From Mobula hypostoma (lineage: Eukaryota), in assembly GCF_963921235.1 (NCBI RefSeq), contig NC_086097.1:37512001-37576000 (forward strand): a stretch of DNA of 64,000 nt, in the 5' to 3' direction. The notes beneath the pieces were generated by a model, which was not told where the DNA came from, searched no databases, and saw only the letters and a program-made list of their open reading frames with translations. Shown here in pieces: positions 40,340 through 47,000 of this stretch (positions are counted from its first letter, which is position 1; every line of letters begins with the position of its first letter). A program made the position numbers and the translations under genes.

Positions 40340-40344
40340 ATATA

Positions 40345-43300
40345 ATTTCTGGTTTGTACCAGTGGCTTCCAGGAAAGACTGGATGGCAACTGAGGAAGGT
40401 CGGTGACGCTGTAGAGACAGCTGACCTCGAGGAAAGACTGGCACAAGTTCACAAGGCTAGCAACCTTGTGGGCAGCACTCGCAAGAGGGCACCACTCAAG
40501 CTACGACTGAACACAAAGAGCAGTACCCCCAGAGTCTCCCGAGAGGTGGGGAGGATGAGAGACTTAACAGGACGGTCATACCGGCAACGGCCAGGTCAGG
40601 AAACATGGCTACGAGGAAGCTAAAGCAAACAACACTGACCGGAGAGGAATTCACGGTAAGGTGTCATTGCGGGAGGGTCTGCAAAAACATCAGAGGGCTC
40701 AAGATACTCCAGAGCAGGTCTAGATATGGATCAGTGGTGACCCAAGTGCAGCGCACGGACTTGGTGTCCGGTGAGACGAAGGAGAATTCCAGCCAGGAAG
40801 CACCCCACAGAGCTGAAGATCTCTCCGCACTTGAGTCGCCTCAGCACCGAACAACAGACCTAATGAGGTCCTCTTCGGCTACCCCCAATCCATTCATCAA
40901 GGAAAGACAGGATCAAATGGCCTAGATCGTCAGACAACGTCGCCTGGATGCAGTTCGGTAATGATCTAGACGGCATCCTGGAAGTTGCCTTAGCAGGTCC
41001 AGTACACAGAAAGATCGACTCACTCACAGCCATAGCGTACAATCTAGCTAAGGAACGATTTGGCCCAATGGAGCGGAGAAGCCAGCTGGAGTTACCGCGG
41101 CAACCAAATAGGAGGGAAACGGAGATTTGTCGTTTGAGAGGCGAATTAAAGGCACTCAAAAAGAGGTTTAAAATCAGCTCACTGGCTGAAAAAGAAGGTA
41201 TCAAGGACTTAACCAGTATGCTGGGGGAAAAGCTGTGCAAACTCCGGAGGGCGGAACATCTGTGACAGCAAAGAAGGAAGAAAGAGAAAAGGCGAGCACA
41301 GTTTCTGAGAGATCCACTCAGCTTCACCTGGATGCTTCTCGGCCAACAAAAATCTGGTATACTATCCAGCTCGAAGCCAGAGGTAGAGGAGTTCCTGTGG
41401 GAGGCACACAGTGACCCACGGAGGGGTCAGGGGCTAGGAACCAATCGGACTGTGCGTAGACCAAAAAATCCATCAATTGAGCTGAATGTGAAGGAGCCTA
41501 CATGGCAGGAAATCCAGGACATCATCTAGAAAGCTAAAGCATCAGCTGCCCCAAGCCTAAGTGGCGTACCTTATAAGGTGTATAAAAAATGCCCAAAACT
41601 TCTTCGGAGGCTGTGGAAGGTCATGAGAAAGGTCTGGGCCAAAGGTACTATTCCAAAGGTAAATTGGCAGACGGATGCTTTATTTCAAAGGAAGGGGTTT
41701 CTTCTACAATTGCCCAGTTTAGGATAATTTCTCTCCTGGATGTGGAATGTAAGATTTTCTTTTCTGTGCTTGCAAGAAGGCTGACTTCTTACATGACACA
41801 GAACCGCTTTATCAACACATCCATCCAGAAAGGCAGCATTCCAGGCTTTTCAGGGTGTCTGGAACACACCTCAATGATTAGTCCAAGCAGCAAAAAGGCG
41901 ACCTAACAGTTTTCTGGTTGGACCTTGTGAACGCCTACAGGTCTATTCCACATGACCTCATCCTAGAAGGACTCGACCACTACTACATCCCAGTGGCTAT
42001 TCGAGACATGATCACCAGGTACCTAGGAGGATTCAAACCCAGATTTACATCAGCCCATTTCACAACTAGTTGGCAGGACCTCCAGAAGGGGATTCCAACA
42101 GGGTGCATCATCTCCCCCATCCTATTTACTATGGGAATGCACCTCCTATTATCAGCAGCAGAAGATGTAATCCGCGGCCCTATGCTGGAGTCAGGCATTG
42201 TTCAGCCGGCTCTACAAGGATTCATGGACGACATCACTATAACAACTGTGTCACATGTCCAAGCAAGATGGGTATTGGAAACCCTGGGTAATGGAACCAC
42301 TTGGGTGAGGATGGCCTTCAAGGCTAAGAAGTCCAGGTGCATGGTGATCAGAAAGGGCAAAGTTATTAGCAAGTTTAACCTCCAAGTTCAGGGTGAGTTC
42401 ATCCCTTCCATCGAAGATAACCCGATAAAATGCTTGGGGAAGTGGTTTAATGTGTCACTGACAGATGGAGCCAACGTCACCAATGCTGTGAAGCAGACAG
42501 ACGAATGTCTGAAGAAGATCGACAAATCCGGACTTCTGAGTAAATTCAAGACCTGGCTGTACCAATACGGCATTCTGCCCAGGCTTCTCTGGCTCTTCAC
42601 ACTTTGAGTTCCCCATGACTGCCGTAGAGGGCATCGAGAGGAAAACTAACAAGCACCTGTGGAGGTGGTTGGGAGTTCCCCCAAGCTTCTCTTCAGTGGG
42701 CCTCTACATTCTTTCTGGGCAACTGCAGCTTCCCCTGTCATCTGTTGTGGAGGAATTCAAGGTGGCAAAATACAGAGCCTTATTAAGCTTGAGAGATTCC
42801 AATGATATCTTGGTAAAGCAAGCAGGCATTACAACCAGATCTGGGCGCAAGTGGGCAGCCAATGCAGCTGTGGAGGAGGCAGTGTGTTGTCTGAAGCTGC
42901 GAGATATCATCAGCAACCCCTGTGTTGGGCGGCAAGGCCTCGGCTCAGTTCACTTCCAGAAGTGGGGAAATGCAAACATAAGGAACAGGCGAGACATGGT
43001 ACAGGCAGAAGTACAGATCCATGAGGAAGAGAAGCGGATGTCAAAGGCAGTGAAACAAGGGTCCCAGGGTGCCTGGACAAAATGGGGTCTGCCCAAGCGC
43101 AAGATCTCATGGGCAGAGTTATGGAGACTGGAGCCCTTCCGTATTTCCTTCCTCTTGCGATTTGTGTATGACACCCTTCACCATTACATCTGTAAAACAT
43201 GGGGAATGAGAGAGGACCTGAACTGTAAGCTCTGTGGTCAAAAGGGGACACTGGTTCATATACTGTCTGGGTGTAAAACAGCTCTAACTCAAGGACGGTA

Positions 43301-44090
43301 TAGGTGGCACCATGATAAGGTGCTTCTGGCTCTTGCTGACACACTAGAGCAGGAGAGATGCAAGAAGAGGACAGCTGGCACAGATTTGAGGAAGGCCATC
43401 ACCTTCATCAAAGAGGGAGCCAGGCCTTTCGTGACCCAAACAACCAAAGCCCAATCTGCTGCTAACGGCTAGGTCCTGGGAGATGAGGGTCGATGTGGGA
43501 AGAAGGTTGCTGTTCCCAGATGTGGTGCACACAACCCTACACCCAGATATTGTACTGTGGTCAACGGAAGACAAGAAAATTATTCTGGTTGAGCTGACTG
43601 TGCCGTGGGAGGAGGGATGGGAAGAGACCCATGAGAGAAAGGACTTGAAGTACCAGCCCTTAGTGCAGGAGTACAAGGGATGGCAGGCATGGTTTTTCCC
43701 TGTGGAGATCGGCTGCAGAGGTTTCCCAGCCAAATCAGCATGGCGGTTGTTGTTAGATCTGGGCCTGGATGAAAGGAGCAAAAAACAAGCAGCTCGTAGG
43801 ATGGGGGAAGAGGCAGAATGAGCCTCTTGTTGGATTTGGAGTAGGCGAGAGGAGGGAAGCTGGAAGCCAGGGCAGTAATTTGACCACCACTGCCGGCCCA
43901 CCAACTGGAGAGTGTCGTGGTTAAGGGTTGAAACACTCTGTGAAGGTTGGGAACCACCTGATGATATCTGCTCCTGGCTGAAGGCTACGGTTACCTTATA
44001 AGGTAACTGGAGAATGCACTCTAACAGGTGTATGTAACAAGTACACATCTCACATCATACACAAACTACCAATGGACACATCACACAGAT
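40345..44090 (+). mobile_element. HERO/R2-group non-LTR retrotransposon with restriction-like endonuclease; near full length, ORF broken by stops and frameshifts (about 40605-43878)
   Basis: N-terminal zinc finger CHCGRVCKNIRGLKI; RT motifs QFRIISLL, GCLEHT, LDLVNAYRSIPH, KGIPTGC..SPILF and FMDD; knuckle CKLC...HILSGC; YRWHHDKVL; PDIVLW..ILVELTVPWEE...RK..KY; terminal TAA at 43876-43878. Confidence 0.9.
43901..43969 (+). ncRNA. Rearranged (non-circularly permuted) hammerhead ribozyme candidate in the HERO-like 3' UTR
   Basis: Stem III 43909-15 with 43933-39 (7 bp), cleavage triplet GTC at 43914-16, stem I 43917-22 with 43952-57 (6 bp), GAAA at 43930-33, CTGATGA at 43958-64 and a weak stem II 43966-69 with 43925-28. 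Confidence 0.68.
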
Positions 44091-47000
44091 AACATTCCCT
44101 CTCTTGCAATACAGGCAGGAGGGGAGCCCTACATGGCCAGGAGACAGAAAACCAGCACTAGGCTCAGTCTAGCAGAGCCAGGGCCAGCATAAAATCAGAA
44201 GTCATTTAAGGTAATGGTACACTCATGCATTGTACTCCTTTTCGGTATCTTATGTCTGCATATCCCATGGTTTACAAGGTTGGGATGTTTACATATTTCC
44301 TCTTTAGCAGCCAAGCACTAGTTAAACCTCTTCAAACTTCCGTATAAAATGAAAATTAGAGTCTATTATCCTGGAAATGAGAGAGTCATTTGGCTGAAAA
44401 ATGCAGTAATAGGTTTACCTAGGTTACTGAATTGTGTCAATGTCAACTTCCCTACTGCTGCATTCAGAAAGTCACAGTTGGAGATGATGTTGTGCTATTA
44501 AGCCAACCTTTAATAGAGAAATAAACTGAAAATGAATTGCTTCTTTGGTTGTCAAGAAAAAGCAAATTGCACATTATTAGAAGGCTTGTTAGTCAAATTA
44601 ACAATTCATTTAAATTGAGGAAAGTAAATTCGCTTCTGAAATTTGAACAGCAGAAATAAAAGTAAAAAGAGTATTGGATTGCCAATTCATTCCAAGTGCT
44701 TGCATAGTAACATTCTCAAATATGATGATCTACTTCAGATATAAGCAACAGAATATGGAAGTGCTGGAAATTTTATATTGCAGCCACTAAAGCATTGGGG
44801 TAATTGAATCTTGAGGAACGAAGAAGTTGTTTGGACTTTGGTATTGAATGGGCTCAGGTGGAAATTGATGTTTCTTCTTACATGCAGGCCAAGGTCAGAC
44901 TGAATACTGAGATTGTAAGTAGTCTGGTTCAGCCTAATAATAGATGTGAAGGTGAATCAGTGGCCTGGAGAAATAATATGTATTGCAAAGTGATGAAAAC
45001 TGTACAGTCCATCCTTTTTAACTGAAACTGATAATCAATGAAAAATAGCAAAATCAGTAAATAACCATGTTTACTAATCTCCAAAAATATATAAAATAAA
45101 GAAATCCCACAAAACTGGGGAAAGCTCAGTCAAGATAATCAAGGGAAGAAATGGTCCAGGAGGTTGGTTTGGAATATGGGTTGAGGTGGGGGCAGCTATG
45201 AGGAGAGTGGCAAGAGGCTGTAATGCAGAAAACATTGTCCCAGAGTATGTCTATATTGTCTCAAGAATTCAGTGATCTCATCAGAGATCCTGAAGTAGGG
45301 CTCTTAACACAGATAACATCCTTGGACCCTTTGCTCATGGGACAATTCTCTTTCTCATTTTCTGAGTTTATTTTACAATTACATTGTACGTGTGTACAAA
45401 TTTACAATAATCAACATTATATTATAAATGCAGCAATAAATTGCAGATAGAAAATTGACCCCACCAATAACTAATGACTAGGTTTCGTATAAGCTTAAAG
45501 AAAAAGGCAAAATAATTAGAACAAGAGGACAAATAGACAAAATTATGATAGCATGCAATTTTAAACCATGTTCAACAAATTTAATGGGCATTATTTTTGA
45601 GAACACTTGTAGTCTAGTTGCAAGTCGAATGAGAGGATGTTGTATTTTTGAATTTTTTAAAAATACTTCTCAGATCGTTGTTACATAAAATAAGACCTCT
45701 CAGTGCTTTGAATAGCACATTAGCATGGATGAAAGATTGGTTGAAGTTCAGAAAACATTAAGCCAGATTCTGAATGTTTTTGTCTCACAACACAGAATTG
45801 CTACTTACAAATAGAGATTAAGCCTTCTGGAGATTGGGTGAAGGTCTTGCCTGGAACAGGCTTTGACAGAAGGCAAACTTGAGACAAGTATTATAATACA
45901 AAGTAGTTTTATACACAATTAATGCAAGTTATCCTGTTTAACCACTTTTTTCCGATCTACCTTGATATCAGCTGAGGTTTAATGTGTGAAAAATAAACAC
46001 CTAATTATTCAGAAGTAATATTTAGCTATAAAATATTGAAGATTAGGCAATTAATAAAGATGTTTCACTATTAGGAAAACAGCTTTTTAAAAATGTTTGT
46101 TGAACAATCTGTTAGACTTATCTAATCATCTGCGGTACACATCCTACATTTGCTAATCAAAATATCTTAACCCTCAGTCTACAGGTATTACATAATTATC
46201 TGAACGATGAAAACTGTTAAGAGTAAACTGGAAGGCTTGGTGGAGATAGAGAGACAACTAACTGAAGCTGTTAATGTGAAATTGCTCAAACCATCCCAGC
46301 AACCACCATTCTTAAAATTTAATTCTTTAGGGTTATTGACATTATGAAGAATCAGTCCCTTAAGCTGTTATCAGAACAATTAATCAGTAAAAAGTTACAT
46401 TATCATAACAATAAAAATACTGCTAGCATTAAAGCAATAGACAATGAAAATGATGCTGAAACATGCTAAACAAAATCCAAACTTTATGCATGTTAAAATT
46501 AAATTCCAAATAATTATTTTATGGAGAACAAATGAAAATAATTCTTAAAATGTAGTTCCTAATGTATATATGTGGCTGAAGAGTCCATTTCTAGTACAGT
46601 TGTTTGCTTCTCAGTTATGTTTTGCATTTGATGGCACAAGAGATGACATAAGTCAAAAGCAATCAAAGTCCTCATTCTTGGTGGAGAGACCTTGCCCTAA
46701 TACTCTGTGACTCACACCCAGGTTGTTCTCAGCTCTGCTGCTCTGCTTCCAGACACATCACTTACAGTCCTTCTGATGTGAACAACTTGCTGAGAAATTG
46801 CCTCATGGCATATAGTTTCCCTGACCCTGTACCATGCCTATTTGAGTAGGTTTTGATTTAAACAGTGTATGATGCTCTTTTCTGGTGAGCTGTTTGACCC
46901 TGCAGCCTAAAGCGGTTCTAAAGTTGAATTTCCTGCATTGTCATTGTGGCTGTAAACCATCTTAATGCACTGCTGAAATCATTAGATTCAGGAGTAATGT

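Follow-up and report, generated by a model that had tools for sequence, protein, structure and literature searches.

Does a broken retrotransposon copy in the genome of Mobula hypostoma carry a hammerhead ribozyme at the end of its open reading frame (ORF) and, if so, how are the strands of that ribozyme connected? The DNA that raises this question, called the window throughout, is a stretch of 64,000 nt from contig NC_086097.1 (RefSeq assembly GCF_963921235.1, positions 37,512,001 to 37,576,000); all window features described below lie on its forward strand and are numbered from its first letter. The window includes a ~3.7-kb copy of a retrotransposon that lacks long terminal repeats (a non-LTR element; 40343..44043), whose ORF is disrupted by stops and frameshifts, and the RNA domain under study begins in the last codons of this ORF and extends past its 3' end (43865-43979). 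We conclude that it is most probably a damaged copy of a conserved ~125-nt domain, predicted to be a hammerhead ribozyme whose strands are connected in a previously undescribed topology. Comparison of relatives down to ~35% protein identity shows that selection has kept the core letters, five predicted helices, and an ORF-end helix that we call the clamp.

Hammerheads are the best-studied small ribozymes. An earlier reading of this DNA, made from the letters alone (the sequence-only reading), had placed a hammerhead shortly past the ORF stop of a HERO/R2-group retrotransposon. The placement behind the ORF holds: the core lies ~40 nt past the stop codon of a non-LTR retrotransposon with a reverse transcriptase (RT) and a C-terminus that carries a CCHC motif and a restriction-like endonuclease (RLE). 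Every letter and pairing that it named is present: AGAGTGT-C (43909-16), GTGGTT (43917-22), GAAA (43930-33) followed by CACTCT, AACCAC (43952-57), and CTGATGA (43958-64). A motif scan of the window gave 6/6 Watson-Crick pairs for stem I and 7/7 for stem III. The hammerhead core letters, the A15.1-U16.1 pair, and a base other than G at H17 are all there, and the order of the core strands (site, GAAA, CUGAUGA) is found in none of hammerhead types I-III, as that reading had also recognized.

How much weight can a single copy bear? In a simulation of 6,000,000 CTGANGA contexts, equivalent to ~8.5 Gb with the properties of the window, both stem I and stem III reached at least 5 bp in 72 cases, and none combined a stem I of at least 6 bp with a stem III of at least 7 bp. 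A lone copy is unlikely to arise by chance, yet it is possible in a very large scan; since this statistic leaves chance open, relatives were needed for a decision. Rfam 15 had no match at gathering score in the whole window, nor in 20 related loci, and an E-value search of 43600-44300 returned only chance-level matches to unrelated families. The nested minimum free energy (MFE) fold of 43868-44042 is unremarkable (z = -0.98), and a 91-nt piece around the motif favours other nested folds; single-sequence folding, however, says little about a multiply pseudoknotted RNA.

The decisive evidence for the reality of the motif is its recurrence in relatives. With an intact 300-amino acid C-terminal piece of another genomic copy (L005) as query, we obtained 326 proteins, whose NCBI names include teleosts, Branchiostoma, and bivalves (protein records alone). 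A profile made from 19 of these (A1) yielded 80 metagenome loci with flanking DNA, encoding relatives that are 34-79% identical. A strict scan for the three core words with a stem I of at least 4 bp and a stem III of at least 5 bp matched the sense strand in 43/80 loci, with stem sequences that differ among loci; measured from where the protein match ends, the distance to the site is 40-194 nt in 38 loci and 451-783 nt in five, always downstream. The same scan matched 0/80 reverse strands and one of 1,600 resampled loci (20 x 80), and allowing one mismatch added ~17 further loci. We then have a covariance model (R1) made from 51 instances, namely the window and 50 loci, in which only stem III and an outer helix, P0, are modelled as pairs and from which three spurious rows, two rows from the own genome, and three duplicates were excluded. 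At E <= 0.01, it recovered the window motif and 66/80 loci, 17 of them outside the seed, with one match per locus and all on the sense strand.

Within these relatives, conservation falls on the letters that catalysis would require. G12, A13, and A14, followed by the stem III 3' strand from A15.1, occupy 43930..43938 in the window, and C3 U4 G5 A6 U7 G8 A9 occupy 43958..43964. Counted over 66 distinct rows (fewer where incomplete), C3 is kept in 60/63, U4 in 61/63, G5 and A6 in 63/63 each, G8 and A9 in 62/63 each, G12 in 64/66, A13 and A14 in 65/65 each, and A15.1 in 63/65. Every core position besides H17 and N7 is conserved to at least 95%, and the full core (11 fixed letters plus an H17 that is not G) is found in 52/62 complete rows. 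H17 is C in 23 rows, U in 23, A in 19, and G in one, and N7 is U in 41, A in 12, C in nine, and G in one; judged from these rows, both free positions show the variation expected under the hammerhead rule.

The helices were assessed on a structure-free MAFFT alignment (A5) of 59 sequences from the 67 R1 matches. Omitted from it were three duplicates and five rows cut short by contig ends, and L149, a seed locus that R1 did not recover, is also absent. On this alignment, the whole structure is 90.8% paired, compared with 65.5% after shuffling (0/500 shuffles as high), and its covariation score is 0.594 versus 0.171 for shuffled alignments and at most 0.126 for slid partners. The A15.1-U16.1 pair is found in 56/59 sequences. 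Covariation of stems I and III is strong in the family alignments: stem I (43917..43922 with 43952..43957) has changes on both sides in all six pairs (the first is CG in 34 sequences, GC in 13, UA in eight, AU in two, and GU in one). Stem I and stem III, whose 5' strand (43910..43915) ends in U16.1, are each 92% paired (92-95% overall), percentages that are partly circular because the first scan required both stems, and that are made meaningful by the detection controls on reverse strands and resampled loci. Stem II (88-92% paired), P0 (89%), and the clamp played no role in choosing the sequences.

Stem II is predicted to form between the five bases just upstream of P0 (43895..43899, positions 10.1-10.5, GGCCC) and the five bases before GAAA (43925..43929, positions 11.5-11.1, with U at 11.1 in the window copy). 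Cognate duplexes average -8.73 kcal/mol against -6.08 +/- 0.22 kcal/mol when strands are permuted between relatives (0/1000 permutations as low), and compensating examples include GGCCC/GGGCC, GACUC/GAGUC, GGGUC/GACCC, GUCAA/UUGAC, and GGUGG/CCACC. The 10.2-11.2 pair is GC in 17, CG in 16, AU in 13, UA in four, and GU in three of the A5 sequences. In the window copy the pairs are G43895.U43929, G43896.U43928, C43897-G43927, C43898-G43926, and C43899-G43925; position 43929 (11.1) is C in 31/49 sampled rows of its subfamily (A, below). Across A5, 10.1-11.1 is G-C in 40 sequences, G.U in eight, and otherwise in 11. On this evidence, the predicted stem II restores the hammerhead G10.1-C11.1 pair next to the core.

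The sequence-only reading had also proposed an outer helix, CCAACT/GGTTGG, as an extension of stem III. This helix, P0 (43901..43906 with 43945..43950), is real and conserved (89% paired in A5, 82% in alignment A4, and four or five pair types at most positions of A5), but it does not simply extend stem III, since a kink-turn (k-turn)-like motif lies between the two. The k-turn consensus consists of a canonical (C) stem, a 3-nt bulge, tandem G.A/A.G pairs, and a non-canonical (NC) stem; here, P0 takes the place of the NC stem. The non-bulged side of the motif (43907..43909) reads G and then G-A (G43908 A43909), and the bulged side (43939..43944) has the 3-nt bulge UGU (43939-41), G-A (G43942 A43943), and A. 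Among the family rows, the G-A of the 5' strand is kept as G in 47/65 and A in 50/65 and that of the 3' strand as G in 53/63 and A in 55/57; 28/51 rows match the strict k-turn consensus, and 37/57 have both G-A pairs. The connection from P0 to stem III is k-turn-like by these letters, with a kink geometry that is predicted. The linker from P0 to the stem I 3' strand is a single base, as is that from stem II to P0, so P0 would have to bend back towards the distal ends of both stems. A mutual exclusion of P0 and stem I is possible; a steric argument for it, built on the one-base linker between them, was dropped, as both helices covary and the k-turn-like motif allows the fold-back.

The 11-15 bases immediately 3' of A9 are predicted to pair with the final ORF codons. 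This clamp has cognate duplexes of -18.6 kcal/mol against -10.58 +/- 0.4 kcal/mol for permuted strands (0/2000 permutations; 61 sequences), and in almost all 61, its 3' strand (43965..43979 in the window) follows A9 without a gap. In the host family it is a perfect 15-bp helix, of which the window copy retains a remnant of the 5' strand (43865..43869), its 9-nt deletion having removed most of that strand. The 20-25 nt between the clamp and G10.1 fold as a hairpin in most of the 61 relatives, with differing stem sequences. In the window, this hairpin, H0 (GGCAGU/ACUGCC, 43871..43894), ends directly before G10.1, and in the host family, the stop codon (43877-79) stands at the start of its loop; the stop-codon hairpin seen in the window alone is thus a real and conserved feature of the family. 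The H0 loop is often UGAUCA or a close variant in many loci despite the differing stems (43877-43888 in the window).

Taken together, these helices define an unusual chain. From 5' to 3', it runs through the clamp 5' strand, H0, stem II 5' strand, P0 5' strand, GA, stem III 5' strand, U16.1-H17, stem I 5' strand, AA, and stem II 3' strand, and then through GAAA, stem III 3' strand, the 3-nt bulge and GA, P0 3' strand, stem I 3' strand, CUGAUGA, and the clamp 3' strand. It follows from this order that all three classical helices are closed by cross-connections and have no hairpin loops, that P0 would come together with stems I and II in a distal three-way junction, and that P0 is tied to stem III via the k-turn-like kink. 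The chain would both enter and exit between A9 and G10.1, where the clamp and H0 are predicted to form a four-way junction. The direct backbone from A9 into stem II, a hallmark of all described hammerheads, is absent: the clamp follows A9, and G10.1 follows H0. The conserved G10.1-C11.1 pair suggests that stem II nevertheless stacks under A9.G12 as in classical hammerheads.

The closest described relatives are those of Eckert et al. 2023 (PMC10085705), whose accessible text distinguishes six hammerhead strand orders where three were known before; one of these, with the order site-GAAA-CUGANGA, is their type SGC, known from metatranscriptome contigs only. The S, G, and C blocks follow one another in the same order here (43915-16, 43930-33, and 43958-64). 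The SGC descriptor given in that text has CGAAA and a CUGAUGA(U)G that runs directly into stem II (PMC10085705), and 0/62 family rows pass it. As far as the accessible text describes types SGC and CSG (PMC10085705), the element domain shares with them the catalytic core, a non-classical circular strand order, a short linker between stems I and II, and a fourth helix from the strand between stems III and I; viewed as a circle, it has the SGC/CSG/GCS arrangement, with P0 as the counterpart of the fourth helix of Eckert et al. The difference lies in block C, which is uninterrupted in their types (PMC10085705), whereas the element domain has the stem II 5' strand at its 5' end and is opened between A9 and G10.1, inside the block that Eckert et al. 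treat as unbreakable. This topology falls outside their six forms. Unlike in SGC/CSG as presented there, the partner of the fourth helix runs into stem III via the k-turn-like motif, and the clamp and stop-codon hairpin sit at the A9/G10.1 gap (PMC10085705). The hosts differ as well: SGC/CSG come from presumed circular RNA replicons in metatranscriptomes (PMC10085705), and the element domain lies at the ORF end of an animal retrotransposon. A fourth helix of the published kind, in which the 3' tail would pair with the strand joining stem III to stem I, was considered and rejected, as 634/1000 permutations scored as well.

The host genome offers a second view of selection, through two subfamilies, A and B. 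B is more diverged, with A rather than C at the site and a core that reads CUGACGA. When the majorities of 49 A rows and 27 B rows are compared over 43901-43975, they differ at only four points (H17, N7, a single base of the bulge, and the outer pair of stem I), position 43930 having been fixed by the search pattern; the flanks of this region differ by ~20%. A G12-to-A form of subfamily B has 29 exact matches in the host genome against 67 with G, and as the change falls within a CpG, it is best read as CpG decay. A weak stem II together with the G12-to-A subfamily had been considered as a sign of a chance or vestigial motif; we dropped this interpretation on account of the CpG decay and the finding of the true stem II. 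Contigs from four sequencing runs gave no forms other than subfamily variants. Single contigs in two organisms from sequencing runs (X5 and X6) lack 9-10 nt spanning CUGAUGA and are probably decayed copies.

Several observations weigh against a functional hammerhead of this form. R1 has no match in 14/80 loci, about half of which have <120 nt after the ORF, and there is the partial circularity of the stem I and III percentages noted above. In the window copy itself, 9 nt of the clamp are missing, the 10.1-11.1 pair is G.U, and the ORF is broken, and in one sequencing-run organism, the G12-to-A form makes up ~63% of contig depth. Nor is there an accumulation of genomic copies that begin at the predicted cleavage site: exact matches to the 22-mer just 3' of it come after GT in 349 places and after non-G/non-T letters in one. 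Finally, we know of no precedent for a backbone break between A9 and G10.1.

The best-surviving alternative, distinctly unlikely in our judgment, is that the folded domain is what the RT/endonuclease of the element recognizes during target-primed reverse transcription (TPRT) and that the hammerhead-like fold is structural, with no meaningful cutting. The R2Tg protein, according to the accessible part of PMC12222951, binds a small pseudoknotted element in the 3' untranslated region (UTR) that is necessary and sufficient for TPRT, and the two RNAs are alike in being small, conserved, and pseudoknotted and in lying in the 3' UTR of a long interspersed nuclear element (LINE) of the RLE type. The R2Tg element is the last 67 nt of its UTR, and no hammerhead core is reported for it in that part of the source (PMC12222951). 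The element domain, unlike it, ends ~65 nt before the element 3' end. Conservation of the entire 75-nt region, linkers included, between subfamilies A and B would fit a binding site, as would the interrupted A9-G10.1 backbone and the lack of an excess of copies that begin at the cleavage site. Recognition alone, however, gives no reason for 11 catalytic letters to be kept at >= 95% across 34-79% protein identity while only H17 and N7 vary, nor for the retention of G10.1-C11.1; and binding and cutting are compatible with one another.

Far less probable is the model of the sequence-only reading, a type SGC hammerhead in which ATCT after CUGAUGA pairs with GGGT before GAAA as a stem II that has decayed in the window copy. 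The letters can pair in the window (A-U, U.G, C-G, and U.G; by the scan, four of the first five positions, two of them Watson-Crick, with the first mismatched), and the S-G-C block order is that of type SGC, but the family makes no use of this pairing. It is 42-56% paired among the 66 distinct rows, with no improvement for a register shifted by one base; cognate duplexes (-2.94 kcal/mol) are no better than non-cognate ones (-2.69 kcal/mol; 338/2000 permutations as low); and in host copies, the first position is C.C or U.U and the duplex energy is -0.9 kcal/mol. None of the 62 rows passes the SGC descriptor. The bases after A9 have a much stronger partner in the ORF end, with which they form the clamp, and GGGU(C) pairs with 43895-99, which means that stem II is located elsewhere (43895-99 with 43925-29) rather than decayed. 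As for an ordinary 3' UTR that merely happens to hold hammerhead words in register, very large scans do yield such single motifs (the 72 simulated ones), but with the motif at the same place and with differing helices in 66/80 independent relatives, 0/80 on reverse strands, 1/1,600 in resampled loci, and covariation matched by 0/500 shuffles, chance can be set aside as extremely improbable.

We therefore return to the hammerhead with an open A9/G10.1 connection and ask what it might do. Copies of the element occur head to tail. In the host genome, three loci (L019, L030, and L058) have a 3' end, ..AACAAGTA, that directly abuts an element 5' end (window 40343). In 12 ribozyme-bearing metagenome loci, an ORF start follows 270-470 nt downstream on the same strand (30 loci have at least 900 nt after the ribozyme), and two metagenome loci lie 3.74 kb apart on one contig. 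The metagenome loci with copies in head-to-tail order are L091+L092 and 11 others. Many of the metagenome contigs span roughly a single unit (3.7-4.0 kb), in circular permutation with respect to the ORF.

By analogy with described hammerheads, the RNA would cleave itself 3' of C17 (43916), and selection on every catalytic letter argues for this. Stem II, P0, stem III, and the clamp (~30 bp) link both products, so they would stay joined as a nicked complex. The single copy that starts at the site, against 349 that do not, indicates that the template seldom ends with the cleaved 3' piece; together with the tandem copies, this scarcity makes transcript processing the most likely use. We infer that the domain may process read-through transcripts or transcripts of head-to-tail element arrays, and passage of ribosomes through the clamp and H0 could keep the ribozyme unfolded.

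A bolder version, which is possible though on balance unlikely, is that this 'caged' LINE hammerhead with its open A9/G10.1 connection makes a reversible nick, gated by translation, that gives a re-ligated circular RNA bearing the ORF. An array would be transcribed as a multimer, and two successive cuts would free a unit-length RNA with the ribozyme halves at its ends. The ~30 bp would bring these ends together, and re-ligation would yield a circular RNA able to template more tandem copies. Ribosomes on the last codons and the stop hairpin would open the clamp and so gate cutting against translation.

Other retroelements carry self-cleaving RNAs with which the predicted ribozyme may be compared. 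Cervera and de la Pena are said to have described, in 2014 and 2016, hammerheads in Penelope-like elements and retrozymes, often in head-to-tail arrays. Those are likewise retroelement hammerheads in arrays, where cutting of multimers yields unit-length RNA, but they are of classical type I/III or minimal form and lie in terminal repeats of non-LINE elements. The element domain, unlike them, is of new topology, extends into the end of the ORF, and sits in a non-LTR host that encodes an RLE. For R2 and further non-LTR retrotransposons, hepatitis delta virus (HDV)-like ribozymes are placed at the 5' end (Eickbush and Eickbush 2010 and Ruminski et al. 2011, as cited in the accessible text of PMC13725137). 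According to that source, they too are self-cleaving RNAs (as is predicted here) of an RLE-type LINE, presumed to free the element from a co-transcript, and they differ in ribozyme class and in position (5' end versus ORF end and 3' UTR). In the openly accessible literature, we found no description of an RNA like the present one in searches for hammerheads in LINE, RLE, Rex6, and k-turn contexts.

The identity of the host element is suggested by its ORF. An RVT_1 domain falls within 41918-42607 (E 3.5e-14), and the translation reads as a C-terminus with a CCHC motif and an RLE signature, in which Cys, His, R-P-D, E-L-T-V-P-W-E, and K..Y are invariant among the 19 protein relatives of A1. RLE elements have the order RT domain, CCHC motif, and PD-(D/E)xK-type endonuclease. 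By its translation, the element is an RLE-encoding non-LTR retrotransposon of the R2 group in the wide sense; 'R2' appears in the NCBI names of some protein relatives, and a link to Rex6 is only a lead. HERO is one of five RLE clades in the accessible text of PMC4640811. A sequence search of the PDB with two pieces of the ORF found no match. At the start of the ORF (40605-40760), we observed a Cys/His pattern (..C.CGR.C......GL..) resembling the N-terminal zinc finger of R2-type elements.

The 3.48-Gb host genome has at least 1,211 candidate copies of 43860-43990, and the 40 that were scored are 96-100% identical. Copies in this genome have scattered 5' truncation points, and their 3' ends all fall at 44040-44048, an end also mapped from subfamily A copies L002-L060 and from contigs of four sequencing runs. 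The 5' end (40343) was mapped from the head-to-tail junctions described above, and an Rfam search there gave chance-level matches only. Set against 29 other copies, the window copy shows three defects: a deletion of 9 nt following 43869 (all 29 have the extra nine letters, which are also present in sequencing-run contigs), a stop at 43819 that results from a CGA-to-TGA change, and an ORF end of TAA where the others have TGA. One truncated copy, which starts at the window equivalent of 43910, was seen at L058:1400-1493 inside sequence that encodes an RT-like peptide of another LINE.

Downstream of the ribozyme domain, two hairpins are predicted from the MFE fold before the element 3' end (43988..44033), and both are kept in subfamilies A and B with loop or stem changes. 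The element has no poly(A) and ends in ..TGTAACAAG (44036-44043, and the 3' flanks of L002, L004, L009, L011, L013, and L015). In these same flanks, an extra (A)CAAG often follows the element 3' end, which suggests microhomology priming or a preferred target word. Several loci (L094, L100, L119, L096, L159, and others) have a small hairpin, GCAGU...ACUGUAU, 12-35 nt after A9 and near the element end, of which the window word GUGUAUGUAAC near 44028-44038 may be the counterpart. This hairpin could be a start site of reverse transcription.

To our knowledge, the ribozymes recognized so far in RLE-type LINEs are HDV-like and lie at the 5' end, and the present domain puts a predicted hammerhead where the ORF ends, in an autonomous RLE-type LINE whose protein relatives occur in several animal phyla. 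It was assumed until now that each hammerhead core strand stays joined to its two helices, and this element family breaks that assumption. With an open core and junctions in place of loops at the helix ends, such forms would be missed when ribozymes are sought with descriptors or covariance models; the cage-like fold could also serve as a pre-organized ribozyme scaffold. For the retrotransposons themselves, the domain makes testable the question of how promoter-less, often tandem LINEs process their RNA, and it points to an RNA-processing step in these elements that has gone unrecognized.

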